From the IMG/VR virus record IMGVR_UViG_3300031418_000001: a stretch of 64,000 nt of DNA; one strand, given 5' to 3'. Both the position numbers and the translations under genes were made by a program. Positions 40,834-64,000 of this stretch are shown here, piece by piece. A model generated the notes under the pieces. It was given only the letters and a program-made list of their open reading frames with translations. It was not told where the DNA came from and ran no database searches. Position 1 is the first letter of the stretch, and each line of letters opens with the position of its first letter. Origin of the DNA: a virus (Duplodnaviria; Heunggongvirae; Uroviricota; Caudoviricetes).

Positions 40834-41318
40834 TTCGCACGGATTTTGGCTGATTTGAGGATGCACCAAACGCACCGCTGATCTTAGATAGATCGGCAGT
40901 GTGTTACAAGCTCAAATTGTTTTTTGTTACCGCTATAGTACTATGATTGTTTAGTACTTGTCAAATTTATTTTTAAATGAGAATGATAATCATTTACAGT
41001 TATGGCTACATTTCCCCACCCTCTGGGGTAACGGCTTATCTGCCAATGAATATATAATATCAAAGTACTGGATTGAATGCAAGGATTATTTTGAAGTACT
41101 TTAAATGAGAATGATAATCATTTACAGTTATGGCTGGATTCCCCCACCCCTTGGGGTCATTATTAATATACCATAAAGGAAGTACTGACGCAAGGGATTT
41201 TAAAGATAAGTACTGAAAAAGTTTTGTACTATATAAAGGAAAGAAAGTATTCAAAGTACTTGCACTATATAGGATGCAATGATATAGTACTTCTATCGAA
41301 AACATGGGGGATAACAAA

Positions 41319-41594
41319 ATGGCTTCATACAGTGCAACTATGATTACTTTGGGCGTTTATGGCGAGCCTATCGCGGCGGGCGGTTCCTTTGGTAATATCA
41401 GTATTGACGGGCGTTTAACGCTGGATTCTGCGATTGAAGTAGCACGGGAAACATTCAAGCGGGAAGCCCAATTTAAGCACGCAAATTATCAGGGATTTGC
41501 GATTGAAAAAACTGAGCGTTTTGTGAACTACCATAATCCTAAAATGGTAGACACTAACTTAAAACCGTCAGAAGTACCTTACTTACTGCCATGA
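41319..41594 (+). CDS. early-region hypothetical protein
   Basis: own promoter, GGGGGAT RBS. Confidence 0.75.
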   Translation: MASYSATMITLGVYGEPIAAGGSFGNISIDGRLTLDSAIEVARETFKREAQFKHANYQGFAIEKTERFVNYHNPKMVDTNLKPSEVPYLLP

Positions 41595-41872
41595 TATTAA
41601 GTATAGTATTCAAGCCGTCAGAGCGTTCCTCTGGCGGTTTTTTCGTTTATGATAGTACTCGCGTACTGTTACGGATCTCTGAGCCTGTAGAATCGCTTAC
41701 AGACGTTTCCAGGGTACTTGATGATGCGATTCTACAGTTATTCAATGCGGGGCATAGGGGATTAGTACATATACAATTCTACGAGTATTATCGTCCGTAT
41801 GAGTGTATAAAAGGATACTTAGAATTTAAAAAGAATTACCCGAAGTACTTAAATGTACTTGACGTTAAGTAA
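41591..41872 (+). CDS. hypothetical protein
   Basis: ATGA coupling, but overlaps a terminator-like hairpin. Confidence 0.45.
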   Translation: MILSIVFKPSERSSGGFFVYDSTRVLLRISEPVESLTDVSRVLDDAILQLFNAGHRGLVHIQFYEYYRPYECIKGYLEFKKNYPKYLNVLDVK

Positions 41873-41912
41873 TATAATGTAGTACTATGTACGTATTGAA
41901 ACAGGGGGATAT

Positions 41913-42332
41913 ATGAATACCGAACAAATTAAAGCAGTATTAGTAGTACTTAAGAATATGCAGACTTGTATCAGTACGCAGGATACTTACCTTCCTGGCG
42001 TTGGGGATTGGGATAACAAGGATGATGATTATCGTTCACCGTTCAATCTGAGCGTTGCGGGTAGCGTGTGCTGGCATGTATATGCACATACGCACGGCGA
42101 TTTAGGGATCGGCTATGACTTCCTTAAACCTGTATTCCTGGAGTTAGGTTATAAGGATTGTGATTATCCGGTAGAAAGTACTTTAATGCCAGACGGGTCT
42201 ATTGATCAGTGGTTACAATACCGCCATAAGATTAACCCGTATAACCTGTACTTTAAAGACATTGAAGAATGTAAGATCCGTTGTAAGCTGGTGGATCAAT
42301 TAGTAGAGTACTTTGAGAATAAGCTAAAATAA
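41913..42332 (+). CDS. early-region hypothetical protein
   Basis: own promoter, GGGGGAT RBS. Confidence 0.75.
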   Translation: MNTEQIKAVLVVLKNMQTCISTQDTYLPGVGDWDNKDDDYRSPFNLSVAGSVCWHVYAHTHGDLGIGYDFLKPVFLELGYKDCDYPVESTLMPDGSIDQWLQYRHKINPYNLYFKDIEECKIRCKLVDQLVEYFENKLK

Positions 42333-42338
42333 TTTATT

Positions 42339-42376
42339 AAAAGTACCTTGTAATTTGTTATAGGGTACTTTATAAT
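42339..42376 (+). promoter_or_regulatory. stem-loop promoter cassette AAAGTACC-TTGTAA...GGTACTTTATAAT
   Basis: identical copies near 42736, 57613 and 57997 plus many variants; -35/-10 embedded in an inverted repeat. Confidence 0.8.
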
Positions 42377-42399
42377 GATGTTATTCGATAGGGGGATAT

Positions 42400-42726
42400 A
42401 TGAGTACTGTACAAGTTAATCGGGTTAATAACCTGGAAAATGAGTTTATCGCTAATGCGATTAGTATTGATGTTAATGGTACTGTAAGCATTAACCACGG
42501 GTATAATTCAGGCGGTTACGCATCGCACCAGTACTTTATCACTAAGGACGGTGGAACGCTTGCGATTCAAACTGTTATCGACGAAATTGATAACGTAGAC
42601 TTTAACGATGAATTTGATCCGCAATGGTACATTGTAGGCGTTGAAGTGAATTATGAGGATCAAGATCTTTGGGATTCCCATAATGGTTGTTTGATTGAGC
42701 CAGCATACAACCAGGAAGAAGAATAA
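42400..42726 (+). CDS. early-region hypothetical protein
   Basis: GGGGGAT RBS. Confidence 0.75.
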   Translation: MSTVQVNRVNNLENEFIANAISIDVNGTVSINHGYNSGGYASHQYFITKDGGTLAIQTVIDEIDNVDFNDEFDPQWYIVGVEVNYEDQDLWDSHNGCLIEPAYNQEEE

Positions 42727-42802
42727 TTTATTATCAAAAGTACCTTGTAATTTGTTATAGGGTACTTTATAATAAGTTATACATTGAACGGGGGATATAA
42801 AA

Positions 42803-43039
42803 ATGGGTTCACAACGTATTAGCGAAAAAGACATTGAATCACAAATTAACATCATTAACGCAATGTACAAAAATCGTGGCGTTAATGTAGTACTTAAATC
42901 TAATCCGCGTAATGGTTATGCAGGCGTGGATTATAATAAAGACGGTGCCGGTACTATGACGCTGATTTGTATGGAGTCAAACCGTAATACTTATAACCAG
43001 TTGGAAACGCTTATTAATGGCATCCAGCTAATGGGCTAA
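42803..43039 (+). CDS. early-region hypothetical protein
   Basis: GGGGGAT RBS. Confidence 0.75.
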   Translation: MGSQRISEKDIESQINIINAMYKNRGVNVVLKSNPRNGYAGVDYNKDGAGTMTLICMESNRNTYNQLETLINGIQLMG

Positions 43040-43317
43040 AACGGCCCAGGGAAGCATAACAGGCGATTCTGTAAAGTACTTAATCCGTTTGGTTGAGTAC
43101 TTTACAGAGTGGCCTGTAGTGCGTTCTGTGAGCTTGTAAATGCGAATGATTATCATTTACACTTATGGATAGTTCTCCCCGCCCCTTGGGGTCATGTTTA
43201 GAATAGCAAAGATGGGTACTGTAGTCAAGGAAAAGAAATAATAAAAGTACTTAAAAATACCTTGCAAATGATATATTGTTTTGGTACTATTATTACATCG
43301 AAAACAAGGGGGAATAT

Positions 43318-43551
43318 ATGGACGAACGTATTAAGATTTGTGAAGTACTTGGTGCTATTTTAAACTCATTTAACATGAGTGAAATTAACAAGCTCAAACA
43401 ACAGCATGAGAATGGCTGGAAAGAATATTTAAACGGCAATCGTAATTCACAGCTTGCTGCTGATCAAGAAATGACTAAGGTTATTACTGACCTGGTTAAT
43501 GGTCTTGATCCGGTACGCGTAGAGTATATTCTTAAAGCGATTAATAAGTAG
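43318..43551 (+). CDS. early-region hypothetical protein
   Basis: GGGGGAAT RBS. Confidence 0.75.
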   Translation: MDERIKICEVLGAILNSFNMSEINKLKQQHENGWKEYLNGNRNSQLAADQEMTKVITDLVNGLDPVRVEYILKAINK

Positions 43552-43622
43552 TATTAAAAGTACCTTGACTTATATATCAGGGTACTTTATAATGTACTTA
43601 TCGTAACAAGGGGGATATAAAA

Positions 43623-43814
43623 ATGGCTAAATGTACTATTTGTGGTAAAGAGATTGTTTTAAATCCGTCTGCGGCAGAACGTGCGGCGAAGTTTGGCGGG
43701 AAGCCGTCTGACTATACTAAACTGTTTACTACGCACTCTGATTGTGCAGTTAAACAGCGTTCCCAGGAAAGTACTGATTTAATGCGTCGGATTGCTGCGG
43801 AGGGGAAGAAATGA
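43623..43814 (+). CDS. small zinc-binding hypothetical protein
   Basis: CTIC...HSDC; GGGGGAT RBS. Confidence 0.75.
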   Translation: MAKCTICGKEIVLNPSAAERAAKFGGKPSDYTKLFTTHSDCAVKQRSQESTDLMRRIAAEGKK

Positions 43815-44065
43815 AAACGATTGTTATGGGTACTTATACTTATACGCCTGAAGCCGTATTAAAAGCATTCGTACACATTCAGGAACGTTTCCCTGATCTT
43901 AAAAAGGTAGAGTACGACGAAGAAGGTAACTGGTTATATTCTAATGCTGATGGTACTTTTCCGGCGTTTGATGGTCGAACTGATTGGTTAGATCAATCGG
44001 TACTGGAAGCAGGATCGGACGCTGCTTATTCAGTAGGCTATCCGGTTTGTTTCACATTAGCTTAA
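43811..44065 (+). CDS. hypothetical protein
   Basis: GGAGG RBS; ATGA coupling. Confidence 0.7.
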   Translation: MKTIVMGTYTYTPEAVLKAFVHIQERFPDLKKVEYDEEGNWLYSNADGTFPAFDGRTDWLDQSVLEAGSDAAYSVGYPVCFTLA

Positions 44066-44142
44066 GTACTATTAAAAGTGCCTTGCAATTATATTCAGGG
44101 TACTTTATAATGTACTTATTCAATGAAGTGGGGATTAAAGAA

Positions 44143-44388
44143 ATGAAAAGAAATAATGCAAAAGAACGTTTTCAGTCATTGATTGAAGGCCCACAAGTGT
44201 CGGATGCAGTTTCATTAATTCAGATTGCTGAAACACTTAATGAAATGTGCATTAATAAAGGTACTTTACGCGATCACTTTGCAGGACAGGCAATGATGGC
44301 CTATATTGCAGAAGGTAAATCTATACGCGACATACCTCACCTGGCATATGATATGGCTGACAGTATGATTGAGGCAAGAAAAAAATGA
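44143..44388 (+). CDS. conserved phage protein (TLRDxFA...AYxxADxM family)
   Basis: TLRDHFAGQAM...AYDMADSMIEARK. Confidence 0.75.
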   Translation: MKRNNAKERFQSLIEGPQVSDAVSLIQIAETLNEMCINKGTLRDHFAGQAMMAYIAEGKSIRDIPHLAYDMADSMIEARKK

Positions 44389-44663
44389 AACGCCAATTTG
44401 CTGGTAGTACTGATTTAGTACAGTACTTTAATACTAACCGTACTGAATACAAAGATAAAGCCATTGCTTTTATGGATGATATTGTGCAGTTAAATCGTGA
44501 TATGAACTATGACGATTTAGCAACAATTGTTTCTCCTGAATTCTATGATGATATTCATAGCGATATGTCATTAGATGATGTACTTGATAAGCATTTTATG
44601 GTTCACTTGGAAGAACATAAACGCGAATCATTCATTGCTTTACACGATTTTTATAATCGTTAA
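44385..44663 (+). CDS. hypothetical protein
   Basis: coupled ORF. Confidence 0.7.
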   Translation: MKRQFAGSTDLVQYFNTNRTEYKDKAIAFMDDIVQLNRDMNYDDLATIVSPEFYDDIHSDMSLDDVLDKHFMVHLEEHKRESFIALHDFYNR

Positions 44664-44736
44664 GTACCTACAAAGTACTTGTGATATATTAGCGAGTACT
44701 TTATAATGTACTTATTGTAACAAGGGGGATACACAA

Positions 44737-45225
44737 ATGAACAAGCCTAATATTCATCCGGTAACTGGTATTGCATACGGCGTAATTAACGCTAATAATC
44801 TTGATGGTGATGTACTTCATTCTATCAGTTTTGAAAATGGCATTGATATGGATTATGTCGATGCTCAGGCTGATTGGGCTAAACCTCTCGGCTTTGTTGC
44901 TCCGGTGGCTGATCCTGGTGAAAGTACTTACCAGTACTATAAACGTGTACAGGATGAATTAAACCAATTCGATGCTGAATGGCATACCTTTGAGCAAGAG
45001 AATGAAGATTTCACAGGTACTTCATTTTGTGCGAACTATGAAGGCGTGGACACTCTTTATAGTACTGAAGGTAATACAGTAATGGTTACTTACTCACCAC
45101 ACGTTAACAAAGTACAGCAATGTTCGCCTTGCTTCCCTAATGCTGGCGATCTCGATAACCCTGATGAAAATGGAATTATGGCCTATATGGTTCCTCTCAC
45201 CTGGTTATATAACGAATATAACTGA
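44737..45225 (+). CDS. early-region hypothetical protein
   Basis: GGGGGAT RBS; TGIAYGVI and CSPCFPNAGDLD motifs. Confidence 0.75.
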   Translation: MNKPNIHPVTGIAYGVINANNLDGDVLHSISFENGIDMDYVDAQADWAKPLGFVAPVADPGESTYQYYKRVQDELNQFDAEWHTFEQENEDFTGTSFCANYEGVDTLYSTEGNTVMVTYSPHVNKVQQCSPCFPNAGDLDNPDENGIMAYMVPLTWLYNEYN

Positions 45226-45494
45226 TTCTAACGCATTACAGGCGATTTAATAAAGTACTTAAAGGAATGTATCAAGTACTTTATTAAATCGCCTGTAATG
45301 CTTTCTGCTGCGTTTAAATGCGAATGATTATCATTTACATTAATACTTACTCCTTGCCACCCCTTGGGGCCATGTATAGAATAACAAAAGAAGTACTTAA
45401 AAGCAAGGGATATTTTAAAGAAAATAAGTTAAAAGTACCTTGCAAATGATATATGTTTTTGGTACTATTATTACATCGAAACAAAGGGGGATAT

Positions 45495-45689
45495 ATGGAA
45501 AAGTTAAAGTTATTCAAAATTCAAGTGCAGTTAGCTCGTCAGTACTTAACTGGCAAAGATTCTTGCTTTAAGTTTTCGCGTGATTTGTCAGCACGTCACG
45601 CCAGCAATGCTGAAAAAACTTTGGATCTTAATCTTGATCCTTCTATGTGCCTGGAAGATCGTATTAAGTGGATGGAAGCATTTAACTAA
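45495..45689 (+). CDS. early-region hypothetical protein
   Basis: GGGGGAT RBS. Confidence 0.7.
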   Translation: MEKLKLFKIQVQLARQYLTGKDSCFKFSRDLSARHASNAEKTLDLNLDPSMCLEDRIKWMEAFN

Positions 45690-45759
45690 GTACATTAATA
45701 GTACTTTACTTATATGGTAGAGTACTATATAATGAACTTATTCAATAGGGGATAGAATA

Positions 45760-45951
45760 ATGAAACGTTATATTAATACCAAAACCGCTGGTAAGACTGA
45801 GACTATTGACGAGTTTAACAGTACTGACTACAGTACCATTAAAGAGTTCAACGCCGCTATAGCTACTCGCGTGGGATCATACAGAATGACTTTTAAATCT
45901 TCTGATGTTTATGTTTCATCGCGTAGTACTAAAGATTGGACGGGGAATTAA
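45760..45951 (+). CDS. early-region hypothetical protein
   Basis: GGGGAT RBS. Confidence 0.7.
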   Translation: MKRYINTKTAGKTETIDEFNSTDYSTIKEFNAAIATRVGSYRMTFKSSDVYVSSRSTKDWTGN

Positions 45952-45953
45952 TC

Positions 45954-46172
45954 ATGGCTAAACATTTTAATACCAGAAGTAAAGAATCAAAAGGTTTATT
46001 ATTCATTGATTCTGAAGTCTTTAATAAAGAATTACCAGCAGGTACTACACTGGCAGACATTAAAGATCTTTTTCAGATCAAAGGTAACTTGAGAAAGAAT
46101 GCTGATTATGGCAATTCAGTACAATATAAGTTGACAGATAGCTATTATAGTTTCACTATAAAATTTCTTTAA
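45954..46172 (+). CDS. hypothetical protein
   Basis: GGGGAAT RBS. Confidence 0.7.
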   Translation: MAKHFNTRSKESKGLLFIDSEVFNKELPAGTTLADIKDLFQIKGNLRKNADYGNSVQYKLTDSYYSFTIKFL

Positions 46173-46244
46173 GTACCTACAAAGTACCTTGCAAATAGTA
46201 TCAGGGTACTTTATAATGTACTTATTGAAACGGGGGATAAGAAT

Positions 46245-46667
46245 ATGAGTACTCCATGCGTTATCGGTGTAAAAGAAGGCGAGAAAGTTACCTGGGTACA
46301 TGTACACGGCGATGGCGGTATTAATGTAACTGGTCTGCGTCTGGTTAATCATTATGAGACTTTGGATAAAGCAAAGGATCTTATTGCTGGTGGCGATTTT
46401 GCTTACCTGGAAACAAATAAAGATAACATCCGGTACTATGCTGAAGCAGGCGAAAGGAATGTTGATCCACAAGTAGCAGATCTGTTTATGTTCTATCGTT
46501 GCAACAAATCCATTATTAAGTACTTGTATGAAGATGGGTTATGGTACGGCGTTAAATGGTTATATCATAAGCCAGGTGAGTATGTTCCTTTCATGGAACA
46601 ATATAAACTTGAACCGTTAAACTACGCACTGGAACATAGTATTAATCCTTTTGACAGTAATGATTAA
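46245..46667 (+). CDS. conserved phage hypothetical protein
   Basis: MST..IG...HxDG...G..L..HY...LI..GD pattern. Confidence 0.75.
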   Translation: MSTPCVIGVKEGEKVTWVHVHGDGGINVTGLRLVNHYETLDKAKDLIAGGDFAYLETNKDNIRYYAEAGERNVDPQVADLFMFYRCNKSIIKYLYEDGLWYGVKWLYHKPGEYVPFMEQYKLEPLNYALEHSINPFDSND

Positions 46668-46895
46668 GGTAAACAATTATGACACGTTTTGATTATTGTC
46701 GTGAATGTGGTGAACGTTGTAAAGTACTTAATAATGGCGTTTCTCATCATGTTGACGAAAATGATAACATTGATTATGATGCTGATTCGGAACATGTAGC
46801 AATACCAGAAACTGAATAAGTTTATTAAAAGTACCTTGCAAATAGTATCAGGGTACTTTATAATAAGTTTACAGTAAACCAATGGGGATTGGAAA

Positions 46896-47465
46896 ATGAA
46901 ATTTGAAGAACTGAACGAAGAACAGCAAGCCAAAGCACTCGATAAACATCGTCAGATTAATGTTGACTATGATGATTGGGATGATTTTCTCCGCGAAGAT
47001 TTAAAGAATGCCGTTAAAGATTATGGCTTTAACGATATTACTATCTACGCTGATACTTCTTTCTGTCAGGGTTCTGGTGCATGTTTCACCTGTGATCCGA
47101 TTGATATTGAAAAGTACTTACGTAAATCTAAGCAGTACACTAAGTACCGCAAGTTACATCAATTGATTAAAGATGGTGATTGTACTGGTAAAATTGAACG
47201 TACTTCTATCATGTACAATCATTCAAATACTATTGATTCTAATCTGATAGTATCATATAATATTGATATTACAGCAGAGCAGGATCGTTTAGTTGGCGAA
47301 CTGCAACAAGATATTATTGATTATGTTCGCCGCGAGTGTGACGAATGGCATAAAGTACTTGAAAATAATTATCTGAATATGACAAGCGATGAACAAGTTA
47401 AAGAAACAATCATTGCTAATGATTTGGATTTTGAAATTAAAGATCCAGTAGTAAGTTATTTGTAA
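46896..47465 (+). CDS. conserved hypothetical protein
   Basis: FEEL.E..Q.KA and QGSGACF motifs; GGGGAT RBS. Confidence 0.75.
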   Translation: MKFEELNEEQQAKALDKHRQINVDYDDWDDFLREDLKNAVKDYGFNDITIYADTSFCQGSGACFTCDPIDIEKYLRKSKQYTKYRKLHQLIKDGDCTGKIERTSIMYNHSNTIDSNLIVSYNIDITAEQDRLVGELQQDIIDYVRRECDEWHKVLENNYLNMTSDEQVKETIIANDLDFEIKDPVVSYL

Positions 47466-47641
47466 AAGTACTTGACAGGGGATAGCAATATCCCCTATAA
47501 TTTTATCAGACCCCGAGGGGCGGGAAGGGGTAGGTATAAGTGTAAATGATTCTCATTTACATTTAGATAATTAAGTACTGAAAAGTCCTTGCATTTATTG
47601 TATCAGTATTATAGAATGTACTTATTGAAACAGGGGGATAT

Positions 47642-48013
47642 ATGAATCTTACACCATCACAAATTAGCCACACTTTACACGAAATGGCTGGTAAAACTAT
47701 TAAAGATATGCCAGTGGTTCGTTTTCTACCTGAGTACGATCCCTTTAATCCTGATGCTGGTCGCACGTATGACTACCACAAGATCACTTCTGACCTGGTA
47801 GGAAAGCAGGTTAGCATTGAGATTTATAGTGTATGCCGCGATGCTGATAACGTTCTGCGTGGCTGCTATCGTCAGATTAGCGGAGTAATTAAAGAGCTTA
47901 TTCCGTGTGGTAATAGTAGTGTTATCTTTATCGTATTTGAAAACGGTAAAGTACTTGATCCCTATAGCCTTACTGACATTAAAATTGAAGTCCTGGAGGC
48001 GTCTTATGTCTGA
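47642..48013 (+). CDS. early-region hypothetical protein
   Basis: GGGGGAT RBS. Confidence 0.75.
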   Translation: MNLTPSQISHTLHEMAGKTIKDMPVVRFLPEYDPFNPDAGRTYDYHKITSDLVGKQVSIEIYSVCRDADNVLRGCYRQISGVIKELIPCGNSSVIFIVFENGKVLDPYSLTDIKIEVLEASYV

Positions 48014-48230
48014 TGTTACTATTTCAGGCGTTACTGTTACTGAGCTTGATAGTTGCAGTAAAGATGGTAAAGAACTGAAATTATTAAAGTATGAAAATTC
48101 ACATGGTGAAAAGTTCTATCGTGTGCAGTACCGTTTTAATAACGGTGGCAGTGGTGAATCTATGCCGGTATCATTATATTCTGATGCAAAGCGATATTAC
48201 AGTTTTGCAAAGGGAATTATTATAAGCTAA
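48006..48230 (+). CDS. hypothetical protein
   Basis: GGAGG RBS. Confidence 0.7.
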   Translation: MSDVTISGVTVTELDSCSKDGKELKLLKYENSHGEKFYRVQYRFNNGGSGESMPVSLYSDAKRYYSFAKGIIIS

Positions 48231-48378
48231 ATAGATTAAAGTACTTGACTGATATGGTTAAGTACTTTATATTTTAAGTGTCCCCGAGGGGCGGGGAATT
48301 GTAGACTTAGTTGTAAATGATTATCATTATCGTTTATAAATAGAATACAAGTTCATTATATAACATGGAAGTTTCAAA

Positions 48379-48621
48379 ATGGTTCATACAACAGACATTA
48401 ATCACCTACTTAAAATCAACCGTATCAATATAAGAGATCTGGCTAATTTTTTGTACCAGGAAGGTTTCAAGGGTGAATCTCGTTTCAGTACAGAAGATTT
48501 GCGGATCTATGTTTCGGATGATGGAAAATATATGATCACTCTGGCGGGTCGCTTAGGGAAGATTTACAGTACTCAAAATCAAAAAAAGCCATTGCATATG
48601 TTTAGCGTGGTAAAAGAATAA
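48379..48621 (+). CDS. hypothetical protein
   Basis: ORF followed by terminator hairpin. Confidence 0.65.
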   Translation: MVHTTDINHLLKINRINIRDLANFLYQEGFKGESRFSTEDLRIYVSDDGKYMITLAGRLGKIYSTQNQKKPLHMFSVVKE

Positions 48622-48751
48622 GGCACTCATGTAGTGCCTTTTTTTATTGTTATCAGTAAGTTAGTTGCATTACAATGTACTTTTAGAAAAAAGATTAGAG
48701 AAAGTGCAAAAAGTACTTGCGTATATATCAGCGAGGCGGTATTATTACCAC

Positions 48752-48945
48752 ATCGAACGGCAACGCAGAAATGCAAAGCCCGGACGGTAAAGCGGAGTAA
48801 GGTTCGCCGCATGATAAGGAAAGGGTTACTAAGGGTTCTAACGTATCCTCTGTAACAGGCGAGTAGCTAATAAAGCACCGCCAGCCTTATAAAAGGTATC
48901 GAAAAGGCTTTAATGATACCGTCCTATCTACTCCGCGAGTTCGAT
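48752..48945 (+). ncRNA. promoter-driven multi-stem structured RNA (unknown)
   Basis: TTGCGT-N17-TATTAT promoter; nested helices ATCGAAC/GTTCGAT, GCGGAGTA/TACTCCGC, ATAAGG/CCTTAT, GTTAC/GTAAC, GGTATC/GATACC. Confidence 0.65.
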
Positions 48946-49721: not shown

Positions 49722-50060
49722 GGCATCAAATATAAGGGGGCATTTAGCCCCCTTAAGAAGTTTTTACAAAGTACTAATACAGTAAGATAGTACTTTATAA
49801 AAGTTTCTCTAAAGTACCTTAGAACTCTCCTGGTTAAGCCAGTTTTTTTGTGCCTTTAAATGAGAATGATTATCATTTACATATATAGCTACAACTATCC
49901 ACCCCTTGGGGCCATGTACAGAATAGCAAAACTGCTGGTACTCTGTCAAGGAAAAGAAACAAAAGAATAAGAAACAAAAATACTACTCTAAGCACTTGCA
50001 CTATATCTGATATAGTACTATAATCATTTTCATAGTCCAGAATGAAGTACTTAACAGAAT

Positions 50061-51598: not shown

Positions 51599-51919
51599 AA
51601 AAAGGGGGATAAGCATCTATATCCCCTATGTCTATGGACTGACAAAAGTTTCCTCACGTCTCGCAACGCACTGGAGCACTCACTCATAGTGCAAATCTAC
51701 AATATCCTATCTTTGTAATTTGTCAACACAAAAAATTACTTGATTATTCTCTGGTACTTTAGTATTATTGGTACTGACCCCAAGGGGCGGGATGATTTAG
51801 TACTTAATGTAAATGATTATCATTCTCATAAAATATTTTAAATTAAGTACTGAAAAGTACTTGCACTATTTCTTGATGGGTGGTATATTAATTACATCGA
51901 AACAAGGGGGATATACAAG

Positions 51920-52561: not shown

Positions 52562-52733
52562 GTACTACTCATTATTATTACAGACAGATCTACCCGCCCC
52601 TCGGGGTCAGTACTAATATAACAAAGTACACAATTAAAAGCAAGGAAAAGAAATAATAAAAGTACTTAAAAATACCTTGCAAATGATATATCCGTTTGGT
52701 ACTATTATTACATCGAAACAAGGGGATAACGAA

Positions 52734-53174: not shown

Positions 53175-53528
53175 AAAACTTGACCTATAAGGCTTAGCCC
53201 ATTAATATACGTGTATCGACTTTCGATACACAAAATATGTCTCGAAAGGCATTAAACACTGTAATAGTGTTTTGTTGTTGTGCCTCAATAGATGGACGCC
53301 CCTGGTATTGTTGTTTCGAGGATTCCCCCTTGACAATGCTGGGGTTTTTTTGTATTATTTTATCTGACCCCGAGGGGTATAGTAAAGTAGCTGTAGTTGT
53401 AAATGATTATCATTCTCACTTACGCATTAAACTAAGGTACTGGATTGATATAAAAAGTATATCTTTTTGCTTGCCTTAATGGTAATACAGGCGTATACTT
53501 CAATTATCAAATCAAGAGGAATAACAAA

Positions 53529-56057: not shown

Positions 56058-56223
56058 TACATAACGGCGAAAGTACTATATTTTACTTTACTTTGGTACT
56101 ACATAAGTGCTAAGATAAAGAAACTAAACTATAGTACTTTCGCTTTTTTCATAGCGAAACAAATGAAAGATACTTTAAGTATCTAACAATATAACATTAA
56201 TACAGGTTAATGGGATCGTTGAT

Positions 56224-56637
56224 ATGAAAAAGCTAATTCTTGTACTCGCTGTAATGTCTTTTAGTACTGGTGCCGCTACAAGTACCGGCGACAAAAAACT
56301 TCCTGCGGTTGTTGCTGATAACATGTATTGCGTTGGTTACAACCAGGCAATCTATGAAACAACCGAGCCTGATACATCTATCAATAATGAATCTGAAGCA
56401 GCAATGCAGTACTTCTATAACCGAGGCTTTGAACTCGCTAAGAAGTACAAGATTGATGATGGTGAACCTGAAAGCGGCGGCGGTAAAGATTCCGAAGCAC
56501 TTAATTGGGCTTTCAGCTTAGGTTATGCAACGTACTTGCATGATAAAGAACCTATGCCTCACAAATGTATTAAGGTATATAGTGAAGCCGTTCAGCATAT
56601 GTCAGATAAAGAAGTACTACAACCGTATAATAACTAA
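56224..56637 (+). CDS. secreted/periplasmic protein
   Basis: signal peptide MKKLILVLAVMSFSTGA; two Cys. Confidence 0.75.
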   Translation: MKKLILVLAVMSFSTGAATSTGDKKLPAVVADNMYCVGYNQAIYETTEPDTSINNESEAAMQYFYNRGFELAKKYKIDDGEPESGGGKDSEALNWAFSLGYATYLHDKEPMPHKCIKVYSEAVQHMSDKEVLQPYNN

Positions 56638-56702
56638 TTAAAAGCCCTTGACAGATATATGTCAGGGGCTTTATACTTTGTATATCTTAACAAGGGGGAT
56701 AT

Positions 56703-56927
56703 ATGACAGGTGAAGAAAGTAGTTGGGATATGTTAGATCAAGCTAATGAATCATTTATGAATGATCATTGGGTTTGTCATCATGGTAATGAAGAACATGG
56801 CGATTTTGTAGAAAAAGGTCATGCATGTTCTGTTTGTAATGCAAAAGAAGAACCAGATGAAAGTATTGATCCAGGTTTCTTTTGGGAAGAACTTGCGGAA
56901 ATTGAAAAGATGAAGGAAAGAAAATGA
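56703..56927 (+). CDS. hypothetical protein
   Basis: GGGGGAT RBS; CHH..CSVC. Confidence 0.7.
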   Translation: MTGEESSWDMLDQANESFMNDHWVCHHGNEEHGDFVEKGHACSVCNAKEEPDESIDPGFFWEELAEIEKMKERK

Positions 56928-57172
56928 TCCATCAATATGCAATGGTAGATGCTAAAACTCTGCAAGTTATTGGTAAACACGTCAGTAGCTTACCACCAAG
57001 AAAGATGGCTAACATCCAATACCAGGTTGAAGATATTGATACTAATGAAGTACTATCTGAAGGTACTTGCTTTTTAAGTACTGCTCAAAAGTACTGGAAT
57101 GAAGTTAAAGATCCATTGTACCTGGTTACTGGCGAACAAGAAAGCAAATACGTTCGTACTGATTTAATCTAA
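56924..57172 (+). CDS. hypothetical protein
   Basis: coupled ORF. Confidence 0.7.
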   Translation: MIHQYAMVDAKTLQVIGKHVSSLPPRKMANIQYQVEDIDTNEVLSEGTCFLSTAQKYWNEVKDPLYLVTGEQESKYVRTDLI

Positions 57173-57333
57173 TTCAAAAAGTACTTGACTGTAATGGTTG
57201 AGTACTTTATTATTGTGTTGACCCCAAGGGGCGGGTAGATCTGTCTGTAATATAGAAAAGATTAATAAAAGTACTTGCATTATATTAGCTGGTGGATTAT
57301 AATCATTATATCTTAACAAGGGGGGTATAAAGT

Positions 57334-57603
57334 ATGTCATTAAACAAAAAGAACTTACAAGGCTTTGTAATCATCGGCCTGAACTTTGATACTAACTACG
57401 GCGAGGTACTTGATGCCTGCTGTCAGTTCGAATTCAAAGGCTATGAGATCTCTGTAAGCACTGGTGCGGTACGTCCTTCTATTGGTCAAGGTAAAAATTT
57501 CTTACAACCGGTTTTGGTTACTAATATCAGTACTGGTGAAGAAACTCAAATCAATGGCTCAGTAGAAGCCGCTATTAATTACGTAATCGAAAAAACCAAA
57601 TAA
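57334..57603 (+). CDS. hypothetical protein
   Basis: own promoter and G-rich RBS. Confidence 0.7.
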   Translation: MSLNKKNLQGFVIIGLNFDTNYGEVLDACCQFEFKGYEISVSTGAVRPSIGQGKNFLQPVLVTNISTGEETQINGSVEAAINYVIEKTK

Positions 57604-57678
57604 TTTATTATCAAAAGTACCTTGTAATTTGTTATAGGGTACTTTATAATAAGTTATACAAACAAGGGGAATAAAGAA

Positions 57679-57987
57679 ATGAATGAACATCTGCGTAACC
57701 TGGTGAACTTAATGCGTCAGGTTGAAAATGATAAGTACAATCCAGAAACGTATTTCAGTAATAACATTTCTGGTGAAGCTGGTATGTTAATTTCAAAGAA
57801 TGTGTTAGGTAACTTGTACGCTAAAGGTTATTCTAACATTGCTAATGTGAACTTTGAAATTTTCAAGGATCACAGTACCTGGCAGATTTGGGTATGGGGT
57901 TTCGAATCTGTAAAGTCTGAAAACAACCAGCTTTCAGTACCTTACTATAAGTACGACGATGTAATTGAATTCTTTAAAAACCTGTAA
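57679..57987 (+). CDS. hypothetical protein
   Basis: flanked by identical promoter cassettes. Confidence 0.75.
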   Translation: MNEHLRNLVNLMRQVENDKYNPETYFSNNISGEAGMLISKNVLGNLYAKGYSNIANVNFEIFKDHSTWQIWVWGFESVKSENNQLSVPYYKYDDVIEFFKNL

Positions 57988-58193
57988 TTTATTATCAAAA
58001 GTACCTTGTAATTTGTTATAGGGTACTTTATAATAAGTTCCATAAACAAAGGGGAATTAATCATGTGGCAATTATTATGTGGTTTATTAATCGGGTTTAT
58101 CTGTTTCAAGTTTTGGGGTGCTGTACAACCTGCTATCGTCGATAGCCTTGAATGGGTTGCTAACTTAGTCAGTTCAATCTGAGGATCGAAATT

Positions 58194-58388
58194 ATGCGTA
58201 TTACACCTATTGCACCTGTAGTACATTTGCGTAATGATGCAGGTACTAACAGCGACCAACGGCAGGCACAAAAAGAAGCTGCTGAAAGCGTTGTCGTTGA
58301 GTTGGGTACGCATAAATCACGTACTGGCGTATCCAGACTTACAGCGGATCGTGTACGTGAACATATCAAATGGTTAGAGAGCTTATAA
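58194..58388 (+). CDS. hypothetical protein
   Basis: GAGGA RBS. Confidence 0.65.
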   Translation: MRITPIAPVVHLRNDAGTNSDQRQAQKEAAESVVVELGTHKSRTGVSRLTADRVREHIKWLESL

Positions 58389-58389
58389 A

Positions 58390-58578
58390 ATGAGTGACGT
58401 AATAGTACTGAATGATTATTGTACTGGTGAACCGTTAGAGATTCACAAAGAAGCAATTAAGCACGTCATTACCAGTCGTGTCGGGAATATGGAGTATAGT
58501 ACTCTTATCTGTGACAATGGCTATCGTGCTGGTGTTATGCAAAGTGAGAAATATATTAAAGAACGCCTTGCAAACTAA
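58390..58578 (+). CDS. hypothetical protein
   Basis: ORF in gene run. Confidence 0.65.
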   Translation: MSDVIVLNDYCTGEPLEIHKEAIKHVITSRVGNMEYSTLICDNGYRAGVMQSEKYIKERLAN

Positions 58579-58637
58579 TGATTAGAATGTTAATATATCT
58601 TTACTGAATCGGGGATATATTAACATCAGAGATTATC

Positions 58638-58853
58638 ATGAGAAAGTATAAAATTTACTATCGCTTTACTATTCCTGATAAGTTTTATAGTTCCATGAAA
58701 CTTGAACAGAATGTTGATGCTTTTACATGCGGTGAAGCATGTGATAAACTCCGTACTCAATTACAGTCGGATGAGTTACAGCTTAACATCCTGGAAGTAT
58801 ACGAACAAGTACTGTCAGTACCTGAGAATATAGTACTGCCAGAAGATTTATAA
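58638..58853 (+). CDS. hypothetical protein
   Basis: ORF in gene run. Confidence 0.6.
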   Translation: MRKYKIYYRFTIPDKFYSSMKLEQNVDAFTCGEACDKLRTQLQSDELQLNILEVYEQVLSVPENIVLPEDL

Positions 58854-59064
58854 AGAACAAAGCACGGTGCGTAGCTAACCTTCAATCCCCCTTGACACGG
58901 TTACGCATTCGTGCTACCTTTATATCTGACCCCGAGGGGCGGGAAGAAGTAGGTATAAATGTAAATGATTCTCATTCTCATCTAACAAATTAAGTACTGA
59001 AAAGTACTTGCAATATATCTCTGGATGCGTATAATAGAATCATTGAGTTAAAGGAGTACTGTTT

Positions 59065-59364
59065 ATGTTTGAGTCAACGTTTATGAAGACTGTACGCGAT
59101 ATTCTTAACACTGCTGTTAACGAATGTGCTATCCAGGAATATAAACCTGAATACATTTTACGTCAATTCAATGCGAAATTGAATAATGTGCGTAAACATG
59201 TTGACAGTCAATCACTGAACCGTAACCAGAAAGCAAAGTACTACAAAGTACTTGACAATGCTAAACTTCCTTATATGAATGCTAAACACTATGACCTGAT
59301 GAGTGCTGATTTTCGTAGGAAAATCAGTGAGTTACCCAGCATGATTCAGTTCATAAAAAAATAA
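59065..59364 (+). CDS. hypothetical protein
   Basis: AAGGAG RBS. Confidence 0.7.
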   Translation: MFESTFMKTVRDILNTAVNECAIQEYKPEYILRQFNAKLNNVRKHVDSQSLNRNQKAKYYKVLDNAKLPYMNAKHYDLMSADFRRKISELPSMIQFIKK

Positions 59365-59443
59365 AATAAAGTACTAAATTTGCTTGACGATATATCTGTG
59401 AAGGTGTAGTATTACATTACAGACAATCAAGGGGGATTCAAAA

Positions 59444-59683
59444 ATGTCTAAATTCAAATCTCGTAAGTGGACTGACCAGGCTCAAATCTCTAAACCGTGG
59501 GATGTGGTATTCCTTAACCATCATACCAATTCGCAGCATTACTATCCTGATATGTGTTTCAGTACTCAGGTAGAAGCTGAGAAGGCTGCTGCTGATTTTG
59601 AATCTGCTAAAGCGTATGACGCTGCTAAGCAGTGGCCTATTGATGGCCCAATTTCTGATGAAAATCAGGACGTTGCGGCGTAA
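59444..59683 (+). CDS. hypothetical protein
   Basis: GGGGGAT RBS. Confidence 0.7.
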   Translation: MSKFKSRKWTDQAQISKPWDVVFLNHHTNSQHYYPDMCFSTQVEAEKAAADFESAKAYDAAKQWPIDGPISDENQDVAA

Positions 59684-59775
59684 GTTAAGTACTAAAAAAG
59701 TACTCAGATATATTTGACAGAAGTATCTGAGTACTGTATTATTACCACATCAACCGAACAATGGGGAATTGAAAA

Positions 59776-60645
59776 ATGATGGAAGTTACTCACGTACCAC
59801 GTAATAAACTGGATCTGCGTATCGGCGGTCAACTGCGTACTTATGATCGTGGTATCACGAACGAAGAACTGATGCAAGCCGTGCCGTCTGTTTTCCAGGT
59901 ACAGAGCCATGAATCACGATCTTCCCGCTTCGCACCTATCAGTACTATCAAGGTGATCGAAGAACTGCGTAAGGAAGGTTTTGTTCCATGTTTCGCCATG
60001 CAGTCAAAAGCACGTGACGAAAGTAAAATTGACTTCACTAAACACCAGATCCGTTTGCGTCCTGCGAACTATGATTATCGGAAAGATTGGAATGAAATCA
60101 TTCTGGTAAACGCAAATGACGGTACAAGTTCTTACCAGTTGACAGCGGGCCGGTTCCGTCTGGTATGTTCAAACGGCTTAGTACTTGGCGATGCTGAACG
60201 TTCACAGGTAATCTACCATAAAGGTACTACTATCGAACGTGACGTTATTGAAGGTGCTTTTACTGTAGTAAAAGACTTTGATGAAACTGATCGCCTTCGC
60301 CTGGAAATGGAAAAGATCCTGTTAACTGAAGCAGAACGCAAACAGTTAGCTTTCCTGAGTATGGTAATGTGTACTGGTAATACGGACGAATTTAAATTCG
60401 AACCTACCAAACTTTTAACACCACGCCGCTCAGAAGATACGATCCGCCCTGACTTGTGGAGTACTTTTAACATCATTCAGGAAAACGCCATTAAAGGCGG
60501 CGTGAAGTACTATAACGGTGAAACTGACCGTAATGCAACCTCACGCGAAATTAAAAGTATTGGCAAGAACATGAATATTAACCGTGCTATCTGGAACACT
60601 GCGAAACTGATGGTTGAAGATAAGCAAGCGGTTGTTAGTGCCTAA
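59776..60645 (+). CDS. DUF932 (DUF945) family protein
   Basis: HESRSSRFAPIST...LRKEGF.P...KH..RLR...EIILVNANDGTSSYQL.AG.FRLVCSNGLV. Confidence 0.9.
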   Translation: MMEVTHVPRNKLDLRIGGQLRTYDRGITNEELMQAVPSVFQVQSHESRSSRFAPISTIKVIEELRKEGFVPCFAMQSKARDESKIDFTKHQIRLRPANYDYRKDWNEIILVNANDGTSSYQLTAGRFRLVCSNGLVLGDAERSQVIYHKGTTIERDVIEGAFTVVKDFDETDRLRLEMEKILLTEAERKQLAFLSMVMCTGNTDEFKFEPTKLLTPRRSEDTIRPDLWSTFNIIQENAIKGGVKYYNGETDRNATSREIKSIGKNMNINRAIWNTAKLMVEDKQAVVSA

Positions 60646-60746
60646 CATCCTCGCCCTACACCACGTAGGGCGATTTAATTAAGTACTTAATACATTCCCT
60701 TGGGTACTTAATTAAATCGCTGTAAGACTCATTCAGGGGGTATACA

Positions 60747-61130
60747 ATGACACATGACGAATTAAATGTTATTCACAAAGACTTATTAAGTACCTTAAAA
60801 GACTTTGCAAATAAGCACGGGCTTTCTGATATTAAAACTGGTAATATGAGTTATAACACAAACGGTTTTAGTATTAAAGTTGAAGCGACGTTTGCTGGTG
60901 GCGAGTCTAAAGAAATGCGTAAACTTCGCCACAGTGCAGTACTGTATAATTTTAAGGAAAGCATTTGCAATGCTGAAATTAATTATGCTAAACTGAATGT
61001 GCGTGTTACAGGTATGCGTACTACTAAAGTAATTCTGGAAGATGTTATTACAGGTTCTCAATACCTGGCATCCATTAAGGATCTACAAGAAGTATGCCGC
61101 CGACATTATCCTGAGTTGTTGATAAGCTAA
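60747..61130 (+). CDS. hypothetical protein
   Basis: G-rich RBS. Confidence 0.7.
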   Translation: MTHDELNVIHKDLLSTLKDFANKHGLSDIKTGNMSYNTNGFSIKVEATFAGGESKEMRKLRHSAVLYNFKESICNAEINYAKLNVRVTGMRTTKVILEDVITGSQYLASIKDLQEVCRRHYPELLIS

Positions 61131-61262
61131 CAGCAATTCTATAAATTTTCGAGTACTTGACAAATTAAAGACGGATTGTTGAAATTTTCGAGTACTCTTC
61201 AGTACTTAACCTAATTATCGTGTACCCGCCAGCGTGTACGCGAATATACATAAGGTGCGTGT

Positions 61263-61475
61263 ATGCAGTCAGGTACAAGTGTACGTAGTGTATGTGGGCG
61301 TGTACGTATAGCGTATGATCCTACGTGGTCAGCAATAACCCCGTATATTATCTATCATGAAGGTACTCAAACAGTAAACGCAAAGACATTAGATAAAGCC
61401 GTTGAACTTTGCGAACATAAGTACCGTGTGAAGTTCTGTCAGGATAAGATCGAAAATGCCAAATCAAGCAACTAA
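61263..61475 (+). CDS. hypothetical protein
   Basis: TAAGGT RBS. Confidence 0.6.
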   Translation: MQSGTSVRSVCGRVRIAYDPTWSAITPYIIYHEGTQTVNAKTLDKAVELCEHKYRVKFCQDKIENAKSSN

Positions 61476-61671
61476 GAAGTATTCCGTACTGTTTAAAGAC
61501 AAGAACGGTGAATTTGATATGGTACATGTAAATGCGTCGAATGTTCATAACGCATCTGAAGTTTTCTTTAATGATAACAAACATTCAGATAAAACTATTG
61601 TTGTTATCTCTGAAGGTACTGAATTTAATAACACGTACCGTAATCAAAATGGTAGTTATGAAAAGTTATAA
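61456..61671 (+). CDS. hypothetical protein
   Basis: AGGA RBS. Confidence 0.65.
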   Translation: MPNQATKKYSVLFKDKNGEFDMVHVNASNVHNASEVFFNDNKHSDKTIVVISEGTEFNNTYRNQNGSYEKL

Positions 61672-62044
61672 TTACCAGTAGAAACTAATCCCCTGCGTAC
61701 CAGATAATAGGCACAATAATCCCCCGTCTATTATCTGGTACTTTTTTAGTACCGTAGCGTAGATTCCACGCATCACGATATTATCTCATAAACCACCAGC
61801 GGTTGTCAAGCATCTTTACAAATCTTTTTCTGTTGTAAACACGAATGAGAATGATTCGCATTTACACTTATAGCTACACCCCCGCACCCCTCGGGGCAAT
61901 TAAAGAATAACAAACCAGGTACTTAAAAGCAAGGGAATATATTAAAATAAGTACAAATAAAAGTACTTGCAAAGCCTGGCGAGGTTATGTAATATGTATC
62001 TCAACAGGGGGAATGAGTCTCCCTGGTAAATGGGGATTAAACTT

Positions 62045-62353
62045 ATGGCTCGTAAAACTACTAAAATCTGCTCTCTGATGCTCTCACAGCACGACGATCA
62101 TCGTAATGCGATTCTTTGTAATACTGAAACAACCGACAGGGAAAAGGTTCTGCAATTACGTGCAATCAATTCAATGATTGAATCTTTACTGATGAAATCG
62201 AACTGTTATCAGGGCTTTTCTTTTCCAGATCTGGAAGGTTTACGCAAAGTACAGGCAGAACATGAATCGACGCCAGGCAGTGACTATGAAACTGTAGTAC
62301 TGGATTCAGTACCTGAAAATAACCGTATGTATATTGGTTTACGCGATTGGTAA
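62045..62353 (+). CDS. hypothetical protein
   Basis: GGGGAT RBS before ATG 62045. Confidence 0.7.
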   Translation: MARKTTKICSLMLSQHDDHRNAILCNTETTDREKVLQLRAINSMIESLLMKSNCYQGFSFPDLEGLRKVQAEHESTPGSDYETVVLDSVPENNRMYIGLRDW

Positions 62354-62434
62354 AATAAATTTGACAAGGGGGATAACATCCCCCATAATGTCAGCATACC
62401 CCGAGGGGTGTCGGGAAGCGGTTATAAATGGTAA

Positions 62435-62579
62435 TAGTTCTCATTCGCATTTAGATAGTGAAGTACTGAATCTTTACAAAACTATTTGATAATAGCCCTT
62501 GTAATTAGTACTTAGATCCGTATAATTAATTACATCGAGAGGGGGAAATGATTTCCTCCTGGTATATGGGGATATACAA
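62435..62579 (+). repeat. intergenic regulatory cassette repeated at ~63166-63282 and 63901-64000
   Basis: near-identical direct repeats including Fur-like box, promoter, hairpin and RBS. Confidence 0.85.
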
Positions 62580-62580
62580 A

Positions 62581-63048
62581 ATGAACGCAGTACAGTTTAC
62601 CGCAAAAGTTAAAGAATCTTTTCTGAAGTACTTTCCGAATGGCTTTATCGGTTCCCATAGCTATTCCCTGGGTGATAAAGGAATTTACTTTAAAGCTGGC
62701 TTGATTGGCGACGTTAAAGATTGTTTCCACGGATACCGTGAAAATGATCCATTGCAAATCACTTTCGGGATCTATGATAACATCAAAAATAATTCAGAAA
62801 CCGAGATTGACGGCAAATTGATTGTTGAGTTCCAAGCTGCCGTTTTCTACACCAAACCAGATGAGGGATCTTATCTGGCAATGCAACGCAACAAAGTACC
62901 ATCACGCAAGATTAACAATGTACCGGAGAAAGTACTTGTAACACTGGATAAGTACTTTAAAGAAGCCCGCGACAGTATGAAAGTCCAAATGGATAATAAT
63001 AACATTTACGGACAGGAAAGAATCCCCGAGAAGTACTTAGAATTGTAA
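62581..63048 (+). CDS. hypothetical protein
   Basis: true start MNAVQF after GGGGAT; the track N-terminus is the repeated cassette. Confidence 0.75.
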   Translation: MNAVQFTAKVKESFLKYFPNGFIGSHSYSLGDKGIYFKAGLIGDVKDCFHGYRENDPLQITFGIYDNIKNNSETEIDGKLIVEFQAAVFYTKPDEGSYLAMQRNKVPSRKINNVPEKVLVTLDKYFKEARDSMKVQMDNNNIYGQERIPEKYLEL

Positions 63049-63283
63049 TCTTTACAATTCAGCCCTTGCAATGCAGGGGCTTTTTTTGTATCTTATAAGT
63101 GACCCCGAGGGGCGGGGAGAAGCAGTTATATACTTAGCACGCTAATAGTTTCATAATGAACATAAGTACTGAATCTTTACAAAACTATTTGCTCAAATCG
63201 CTTGCAATACATATTCAGATCCGTATAATTAATTACATCGAGAGGGGGAAATGATTTCCTCCTGGTATATGGGGATATACAAG

Positions 63284-63754
63284 ATGAATAAATTCAAAGC
63301 AATGTCAAAAGTACTTTCTTCTGAAATTATGAAACGTGATCCATACAACAATGAATGGAAATTCGTTTTCAAAGGGTTCGTGTTCGCTGTTATCAGTAAA
63401 AACGCTGGCAAGTACTTCCCCCACTACTCCGGTAGGAAAGGATCATTAAAAGTATGCAATAACTTTATGCAAGCCGTTGCCGAGATCCTGGAGTACTTCA
63501 TTGAGATCCATAATGCCAACATGGTAGCTGGTGGCGAAATGGTATTCAGTACCGACAAAGTACAAGCATTCATCGGCTCAGATTGCGAACTGTATATTAA
63601 ACCAGTACAGGGAACATTGTTACCAGTTACCACCAGGACAACCCTGGAACACTTACAGAAGTACTGCAAGGAGTTAGGCGGTACTGATACATTAAAAGAT
63701 CTCGCGGAAAGTATTAATTCAAATTACAATGATCACGCGATGAACTTAACCTAA
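63284..63754 (+). CDS. hypothetical protein
   Basis: true start MNKFK after GGGGAT. Confidence 0.75.
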   Translation: MNKFKAMSKVLSSEIMKRDPYNNEWKFVFKGFVFAVISKNAGKYFPHYSGRKGSLKVCNNFMQAVAEILEYFIEIHNANMVAGGEMVFSTDKVQAFIGSDCELYIKPVQGTLLPVTTRTTLEHLQKYCKELGGTDTLKDLAESINSNYNDHAMNLT

Positions 63755-64000
63755 CATCCCCGATAGTTAGCGTCCAGGGAAGGACGCAACCTATCACCTA
63801 ATCTTTACAAAACTATTTTGTACTTGCCCTTGCATATGCGAGGGCTTTTTGTTATCTTAACAGTGTCCCCAAGGGGCGGGGAAATGTAGTTATAGATAGG
63901 AATAGTTCTCATTCGCATTTAGATAATGAAGTACTGAATCTTTACAAAACTATTTGATAATAGCCCTTGTAATTAGTACTTAGATCCGTATAATTAATTA

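Follow-up and report, generated by a model that had tools for sequence, protein, structure and literature searches.

The 64,000-nucleotide stretch of DNA analyzed here (Caudoviricetes; IMG/VR record IMGVR_UViG_3300031418_000001; the whole stretch is hereafter called the window) contains 16 copies of a compact module of ~95 base pairs (bp), in which a sigma70-like promoter is followed by a GC-rich palindrome at the predicted transcription start and, in most copies, by a box resembling the operator of the iron regulator Fur at a fixed distance of 20 nucleotides (nt). Judged by homology, these modules are a trimmed, amplified, and lineage-specific form of a promoter-plus-leader element of the terminal repeats of RaK2-like phages, and they occupy the predicted long direct terminal repeat of this genome, a placement derived from colinearity with relatives. 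The trimmed leader, the fusion to a box on 13 of the 16 copies, and the spread over the whole repeat are special to the window. We favor, at roughly even probability, the reading that the modules would start pre-early transcripts made by host polymerase, with a 5'-terminal hairpin leader, that are gated downstream by host Fur.

Module anatomy and position in the genome

The palindrome CCCCRAGGGG occurs 15 times in the window, in all cases within 41147-63876 (0.01 expected), and an older form, CCCCAGAGGG, at 41019-41028 on the minus strand marks the sixteenth copy. A scripted measurement that included this copy placed 16 modules at 40974-63921 on both strands, which bears out the number, composition, and extent given in the original prediction, made by a model reader from the letters alone. 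The 25-mer box reported by that reader has 10 occurrences at ≤3 mismatches (0 expected). The aligned copies keep one order: promoter, T-G-A, palindrome, ~20 nt, and the box TGTAAATGAtwaTCATTCkCATTTA. The distance from palindrome to box, given as exactly 20 nt for the ten copies that the reader counted, was measured at that value in 13 of the 16 modules, 10 with good boxes and three with degenerate ones (61842, 62429, and 63897). The measurement found no box at 52606(-), 57222(+), and 63103(+); the first two had been described as lacking the Fur half (~52590 and 57220) and the third as degenerate (63101). Seven modules lie on the minus strand amid plus-strand genes and, as predicted, oppose the gene flow. 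The modules are listed below with the predicted genome end and a box array that precedes them.

39976..40050, no strand: predicted left physical genome end and start of the direct terminal repeat, from colinear blastn to XaC1 and Munch
40759..40841, no strand: three Fur-like boxes (40761, 40790, 40819) with a 29-bp period, ~0.8 kb from the predicted end
40974..41084, minus: module 1, in the older form; promoter, then GGC-agataa-GCC as leader hairpin, CCCCAGAGGG, 20 nt, and a perfect box at 40974-40998
41102..41195, minus: module 2; promoter, CCCCAAGGGG at 41147-41156, 20 nt, perfect box at 41102-41126
43137..43229, minus: module 3; back to back with the plus-strand promoter of the next gene, leads into a long hairpin at 43055-43125
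45315..45407, minus: module 4; leads into a 28-bp perfect hairpin at 45228-45306
47472..47565, plus: module 5; 12/12 promoter, palindrome at 47511-47520, box at 47541-47565, then the gene's own promoter
48245..48336, plus: module 6; box two mismatches from the 19-bp Fur consensus
49857..49949, minus: module 7; promoter with an extended -10, box differing from the 7-1-7 consensus at one position
51740..51832, plus: module 8
52577..52645, minus: module 9; no box, tail CGGGTAGATCTGTCT, present in XaC1 too
53330..53422, plus: module 10
57185..57251, plus: module 11; no box, tail as in module 9
58892..58984, plus: module 12
61842..61935, minus: module 13; degenerate box, five mismatches
62361..62453, plus: module 14; degenerate box, starts a ~190-nt cassette that recurs at 63867 and, from its second half on, at 63164
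63061..63132, plus: module 15; no box, -35 hexamer within the terminator stem of the preceding gene
63826..63921, plus: module 16; degenerate box, promoter inside a terminator

The module promoters score up to 12/12 in a consensus scan (47472-47501). The end of the -10 hexamer precedes the first C of CCCC by 8-9 nt, so that the palindrome begins at about +1/+2 of the predicted transcript, in agreement with its proposed position at +1.

The window has a G+C content of 35%. Its genes include 18 for tRNAs, a minus-strand RCC1/Kelch array, and one for a sigma factor (25975-26937). The encoded sigma factor is 55% identical to its homologue in Xanthomonas phage XaC1 and ~38-44% identical to those of most other RaK2-like phages (Yen9-04, GAP32, CBB, Serratia BF, and Munch). 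A megablast search of 50,697 phage records with the window matched XaC1 alone, over 100 bp that are themselves one of the modules. On this sequence evidence, the source of the window is assigned to the RaK2-like jumbo phages, with XaC1 as the nearest relative. In colinear blastn alignments, window 40002-41095 corresponds to XaC1 27-1239 and window 40160-41029 to Munch 114-1091, so that XaC1 position 1 and Munch ~1 map to window ~39,976-40,050. Given this colinearity with the ends of XaC1 and Munch, the window would cross the left genome end, and the modules would fill the first 24 kb of the repeat. Long terminal repeats are a feature of the relatives: that of XaC1 is a T5-type direct repeat of 32,031 bp with termini set by PhageTerm (PMC11273794), that of CBB is 22,456 bp long and present in two copies (PMC5259590), and repeats of ~20 kb are annotated in Muenster and fENko-Kae01 (hereafter Kae01). 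The modules had been assigned to an "early region"; their clustering holds, and long terminal repeat is the better term for where they cluster.

The leader element in RaK2-like phages

In XaC1, 10 CCCCGAGGGG modules, all at 3.6-30.7 kb, repeat the promoter, hairpin, and tail of the window modules. A permissive search for CCC and GGG separated by 2-5 nt and followed by a Y-S-S-type tail, applied to the first 16-40 kb of seven phages, found the same kind of unit on both strands in all of them (Muenster, Kae01, Yen9-04, GAP32, CBB, XbC2, and Munch). Across whole genomes, the matches fall only inside the repeats, and a reversed-pattern control gave 0; CBB matches only at 1-20.9 kb and 356.9-376.8 kb, within its two repeat copies, and the GAP32 and Munch matches are confined to the first 24 kb. 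The full-length unit consists of TTGACA-17-TATAAT, a hairpin from about +1 (hp1), a spacer of 3-4 nt, an invariant second hairpin (hp2) of the form CCC-AYA/TAKA-GGG, and the tail TGCGGAGATGTATCTATAG, which is of the type Y-G-S-G-G...TCTAT. The promoter scores at least 9/12 in 41 of 47 full-length copies vs 14% of random 80-mers, and the distance from -10 to CCC is 25-28 nt in 32 of the 41 promoter-bearing copies. CCCCRAGGGG itself is not present in Yen9-04, GAP32, CBB, XbC2, and Munch because CCC-AYA-GGG is used there.

The window tail, CGGGGAGAwGTAGCTATA, aligns with TGCGGAGATGTATCTATAG of the relatives, and the 20-nt stretch between palindrome and box aligns with the conserved tail, for example, CGGGGAGATGTAGCTGTAT in XaC1. 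Tails agree within one phage and differ between phages. The original description of these 20 nt as semi-variable is therefore right for the length but not for free variation, given a mean pairwise identity of 0.56 and the homology to the conserved tail of the relatives. Similarly, the statement that the module has no described equivalent holds for the literature searched, in which we found no paper describing the RaK2-like leader element (for CBB, RpoD-like promoters are listed, with no element downstream of them; PMC5259590), whereas the module core is common to all RaK2-like phages examined. A scan of IMG/VR for further relatives with GACCCCRAGGGGYGGG returned 59 single matches on unrelated contigs, mostly of high GC, which we attribute to chance.

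Support for structure in the leader RNA comes from hp1 in the relatives. It is represented by ~30 distinct stems (e.g., TCCA/TGGA, TGCA/TGCA, GACG/CGTC, GGAG/CTCC, and ACCG/CGGT) around a purine-rich loop (e.g., GCGAAA, GAGAAA, or AGATAA). A Watson-Crick stem of at least 3 bp is present at fixed geometry in 39 of 47 copies vs 4.9 in shuffles. In a MAFFT alignment, 70.7% of hp1 cells pair vs 41.8% after shuffling (0 of 500 shuffles reached the observed value), the covariation score is 0.638 vs 0.192, and sliding the partner columns brought pairing to 17-43%. In the window, hp1 is kept solely by the copy at 41028(-), and the other 15 begin at the GC hairpin. The promoter in the window lineage is 17 nt closer than in the full-length form, which, together with the loss of hp1, brings hp2 to the 5'-terminal position. 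The full-length and trimmed forms both open the predicted RNA with a hairpin, and this shared 5'-terminal hairpin is the main clue to what the predicted leader does. Single-sequence folds of the first 62 nt concur on the 5' hairpin alone. For hp2, one Muenster copy reads CGCC-AG-GGCG, a double change that preserves the dyad. An Rfam scan at gathering thresholds returned tRNAs only, and E-value scans gave sub-threshold matches to generic hairpin (miRNA) models.

The coupling of hairpin and box extends beyond the window. The 20-nt spacing of the 13 window copies recurs in five of the 10 XaC1 modules, and the distance from hp2 to the box is 23 nt in six copies from Munch, Muenster (three), Kae01, and Yen9-04, compared with 24 nt in the window when counted likewise. 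The hairpin-to-box spacing is thus conserved across genera, at 23-24 nt in five lineages; loss of this spacing in related phages had been named as grounds for rejecting the original prediction, and the check instead found it kept, at 20 nt in XaC1 and at the equivalent 23 nt in four other lineages. The boxes of Munch, Muenster, Kae01, and Yen9-04 are found mainly at convergent module pairs 0.3-2.5 kb from the genome start, where two facing modules have one box in common; Munch and Kae01 have a further box-bearing pair at ~7.3 kb. At the XaC1 genome start (1090-1170), two convergent modules without a Fur-like box have mutually complementary GGGTAGATCTG tails, so that each transcript could form a long hairpin. 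The GGGTAGATCTG tail also marks the box-less window copies 52606(-) and 57222(+).

The Fur-like box and the surroundings of the modules

In the window, the 19-bp Fur consensus GATAATGATAATCATTATC has seven matches at ≤3 mismatches vs 0.12 expected, and the 7-1-7 consensus has 23 matches at ≤2 mismatches vs 1.5 expected. The closeness to the 7-1-7 consensus claimed for the module 25-mer is confirmed by TGAGAATGATTATCA at 49861-49875, which is one mismatch away. Five 7-1-7 pairs are offset by 6 bp (40978/40984, 41106/41112, 48312/48318, 51808/51814, and 53398/53404); overlapping dyads with this offset are the reported arrangement of real Fur sites (Chen et al. 2007, PMC2189734). A pattern derived from the phage boxes alone has 35 matches in the window at ≤3 mismatches, all at 40759-63919 (2.1 expected), and is restricted to 3.6-29 kb in XaC1. 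In Escherichia coli K-12, the same pattern gave 84 matches vs 34 for a reversed control, and nine matches that we checked lie just upstream of ryhB, gpmA, entC/fepB, nohA, sufA, fecI, mntH, exbB, and feoA, at iron-regulated promoters. The strong match upstream of nohA (NC_000913.3, 1636591) is in the cryptic prophage Qin, on the packaging-gene side, and a second strong match is located at 580591 (~580.6 kb). Taken together, the box is a predicted Fur-like operator. We found no Fur homologue in XaC1, Munch, Yen9-04, CBB, and Muenster, so that any Fur acting on the box would be that of the host.

The box is predicted at about +33 to +57, 20 nt past the hairpin, and the -35 of the next promoter follows ~30 nt downstream. 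The center of the box dyad is free to vary (AATGA-N3-TCATT). Besides the modules, the three-box array at 40759..40841 has counterparts in Munch (690-800) and Muenster (785-905); in blastn, it also resembles a T5-like repeat_region and coliphage records of ~150 kb. The array is preceded by CTGGACGGATTAGGGGCGTGT, which is conserved in Salmonella phage Munch (672-691).

Plus-strand modules lie upstream of the standard promoter of a gene, and several of their -35 hexamers fall within the terminator stem of the preceding gene. Minus-strand modules and the promoter of the following gene point away from each other, and the modules aim at the reverse side of the previous gene's terminator or at long hairpins (43055-43125 and 45228-45306). 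The region contains 31 terminators vs 11 expected. The two long hairpins, with near-perfect stems of ~22 and 28 bp built on AGTACT, sit between the stop codon of a gene and the box of a minus-strand module, and their only Rfam matches are sub-threshold and of the miRNA type. Very compact composites, in which the -35 hexamer of the next promoter is part of a terminator-like hairpin stem, were observed at 56641-56672, 47477-47496, 63061-63081, and 63826-63845, the one at 56641 without a module. An extra strong minus-strand promoter (61780-61809; TTGACA-18-GATAAT with TG, 11/12) is located downstream of module 13, against the gene flow.

A ~190-nt cassette comprising a module, a second promoter, a ribosome-binding site, and the first 13 codons (MISSWYMGIYKMN) occurs at 62399-62585, 63103-63288, and 63867-64000. 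It is 90% identical ahead of the genes at 62548-63048 and 63251-63754, which are otherwise unrelated, a repetition that looks like the product of cassette-mediated gene shuffling. Two further candidate features of the module were rejected. A mini-open reading frame in the box (ATG ATT ATC ATT CTC ATT TAA, MIIILI) has no usably spaced Shine-Dalgarno sequence, its stop is not kept in the relatives, and the Fur consensus itself translates as M-I-I-I. For a second promoter, the palindrome would stand in for the -35 and TATAAG would be a -10 or a T4-late-like element, but the key -10 positions are weakly conserved, and the relatives carry TCTAT where TATAAG stands.

Possible roles of the module

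Under the favored reading, the terminal repeat would enter the cell first and be read by host RNA polymerase. The strong sigma70 promoter of a module would start an RNA whose first bases fold as the GC hairpin CCCC-RA-GGGG, followed by the conserved G-rich tail; the relatives have the extra, covarying hairpin at the predicted 5' end, whereas in the window lineage its loss and the shift of the promoter again put the GC hairpin at the predicted +1/+2. We infer that the 5'-terminal stem-loop is the selected feature, which may stabilize the transcript or flag it for a factor that works on the polymerase during transcription. At the predicted host Fur operator 20 nt farther on, iron-loaded Fur would block elongation from the module promoter. 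At low iron, plus-strand modules would add read-through into the next gene, and RNA from minus-strand modules would extend in antisense into the 3' part of the gene before. The timing in this scheme is supported by the related phage PA5oct, which depends on host polymerase and strongly transcribes its repeat genes early (PMC7318152); a search of PA5oct found no CCC-N4-GGG module.

Several observations weigh against this reading. The hp2 stem is invariant in the window, so that covariation lends it no support and a DNA dyad is equally possible. The box is downstream of the promoter, whereas classical Fur repression works from sites covering -35/-10. The genome used for the Fur comparison was that of E. 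coli, and XaC1 infects Xanthomonas. Inspection of the window revealed no clear intrinsic terminator after the minus-strand modules, which would then yield antisense or short non-coding RNA. Finally, the box is absent from three window modules and five XaC1 modules, and the convergent pairs of GAP32, CBB, and XbC2 lack a Fur-like box as well, which implies that Fur is not essential to the element.

Among the alternatives, the one we take most seriously, though we consider it unlikely, is that the box only looks like a Fur site and would serve as operator for a protein of the phage or for another AT-tract binder of the host, which would make the modules a phage-autonomous switch of pre-early timing. 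Box variants evolve in concert within each phage (CATTCGCATT is dominant in XaC1), the freely varying dyad center would fit any dimeric binder, and a position of +33 to +57 is atypical of Fur. Yet the pattern retrieves nine iron-regulated E. coli promoters, the same box type is present in unrelated phage groups, and a Pfam search of 20 open reading frames of the repeat detected no DNA-binding domain, although most of these had no Pfam match at all. A more doubtful proposal makes the box secondary and the leader, with its 5' hairpin and tail, a device that renders polymerase resistant to the terminators of the repeat. The lambdoid nut and HK022 put RNAs are promoter-proximal small hairpins that act in cis on the transcribing polymerase and are phage-specific. 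The element is likewise promoter-proximal and orientation-locked with two small hairpins, one of them boxB-style with covarying stems and a purine-rich G...A loop (GCGAAA or GAGAAA); its surroundings are dense in terminators, and its tails, specific to each phage and uniform within it, recall lambdoid N-nut pairs. The match stops at resemblance: the leader alignment contains no boxA-like sequence, no clear arginine-rich, N-like protein was found among the small open reading frames, and antitermination from the minus-strand copies, which run against the gene flow, would flood the early genes with antisense RNA.

Less probable still is a role played mainly at the DNA level, with the modules as patches of homology for PeSL-like cassette shuffling or as protein-loading sites that pause injection or protect DNA ends. 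The ~190-nt cassette ahead of two unrelated genes, the -35 hexamers embedded in terminator stems, and the box arrays ~0.8 kb from the genome end in three genera, which resemble repeat region 3 of T5, all fit such a role; however, hairpin covariation and the fixed promoter distance indicate a transcribed function, and shuffling accounts for the spread of the modules but not for the conservation of spacing and sequence across genera. We think it improbable that the boxes act as a sponge, in which dozens of high-affinity sites in each genome, their number doubled through the repeat and raised further by replication, would titrate Fur and derepress host iron uptake. All 35 box matches lie in the predicted repeat, and the FURTA assay works by such titration, with Fur sites in multicopy (PMC2189734), but a sponge leaves the fixed 20-nt coupling to promoter and hairpin unexplained, relatives manage on one to six boxes, and host transcription is likely curtailed later in infection. 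Very improbable, in our view, is one of the options of the original prediction, a family of short guide-like RNAs that would share the 5' hairpin and differ in the 20-mer. Minus-strand promoters without an open reading frame do suggest the RNA itself as the product. The 20-mers, however, share 56% identity and are homologous to the RaK2-like tail, the longest stretch complementary to them elsewhere in the window is 10.2 nt on average vs 9.9 nt for shuffled tails, and beyond the 5' hairpin the copies have no consistent fold in common. Of the original interpretation, then, the anatomy, the Fur likeness, the palindrome at +1, and the fixed spacing stand, whereas the variable 20-mer RNA family does not.

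Known systems resemble the module in part. The PeSL cassettes of T4-type phages (PMC2839356, PMC4122927) are, like the modules, short composite early-promoter/stem-loop repeats among small variable open reading frames; a terminator stem overlapping a promoter is common to both, and in the window one cassette precedes unrelated gene bodies, an arrangement that has been described for PeSL cassettes. What sets the modules apart is the conserved hairpin and tail that follow the start site, their occurrence in both orientations, their confinement to the terminal repeat, and a Fur-like operator at a fixed distance. The Fur operators of Enterobacterales (ryhB, gpmA, fepB-entC, fecI, and exbB; PMC2189734) share with the phage boxes the 19-bp plus overlapping 7-1-7 architecture with 6-bp offsets, but lie over -35/-10, whereas the phage boxes are predicted at +33 to +57 and are repeated at least 13 times in a virulent phage. 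The left terminal repeat of T5 (Davison, 10.1101/866236) likewise holds conserved non-coding repeats and palindromes in a long T5-type repeat, and the blastn similarity of the three-box array reaches a T5-like repeat_region, but T5 has no promoter-hairpin modules of the window form, and the preprint on its injection stop proposes DnaA boxes, not Fur.

Among cellular RNAs, the ompA leader is an mRNA stabilizer with a 5'-terminal stem-loop. In both the full-length and the trimmed phage leaders, the hairpin similarly begins within 1-2 nt of the predicted 5' end; the modules differ in the added conserved tail and operator, and many of them drive no open reading frame. That the leader tolerates the loss of hp1 only if another hairpin takes the 5'-terminal place narrows its possible functions.

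Our literature search found no paper on Fur boxes in the regulatory DNA of virulent phages; the only phage Fur boxes that we found described are on cargo genes of temperate phages (PMC6969025). If the favored reading is true, the window would come from the first virulent phage, in the literature searched, to put its first-expressed region under the iron regulator of the host. The module is a compact, testable unit with culturable relatives in XaC1, Munch, and Muenster, and it may provide a link to the unexplained palindromes in the terminal repeats of T5-like phages. In its broadest form, which we put forward tentatively and consider rather unlikely as a whole, the proposal is that all RaK2-like phages begin some of their first transcripts with a new class of structured leader RNA, which would act on polymerase or on the fate of the RNA, and that the XaC1-like lineage fused this leader to host Fur operators. 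A virulent phage would then use the iron sensor of its host as a genome-wide roadblock switch, and iron would set the whole pre-early program in both sense and antisense.

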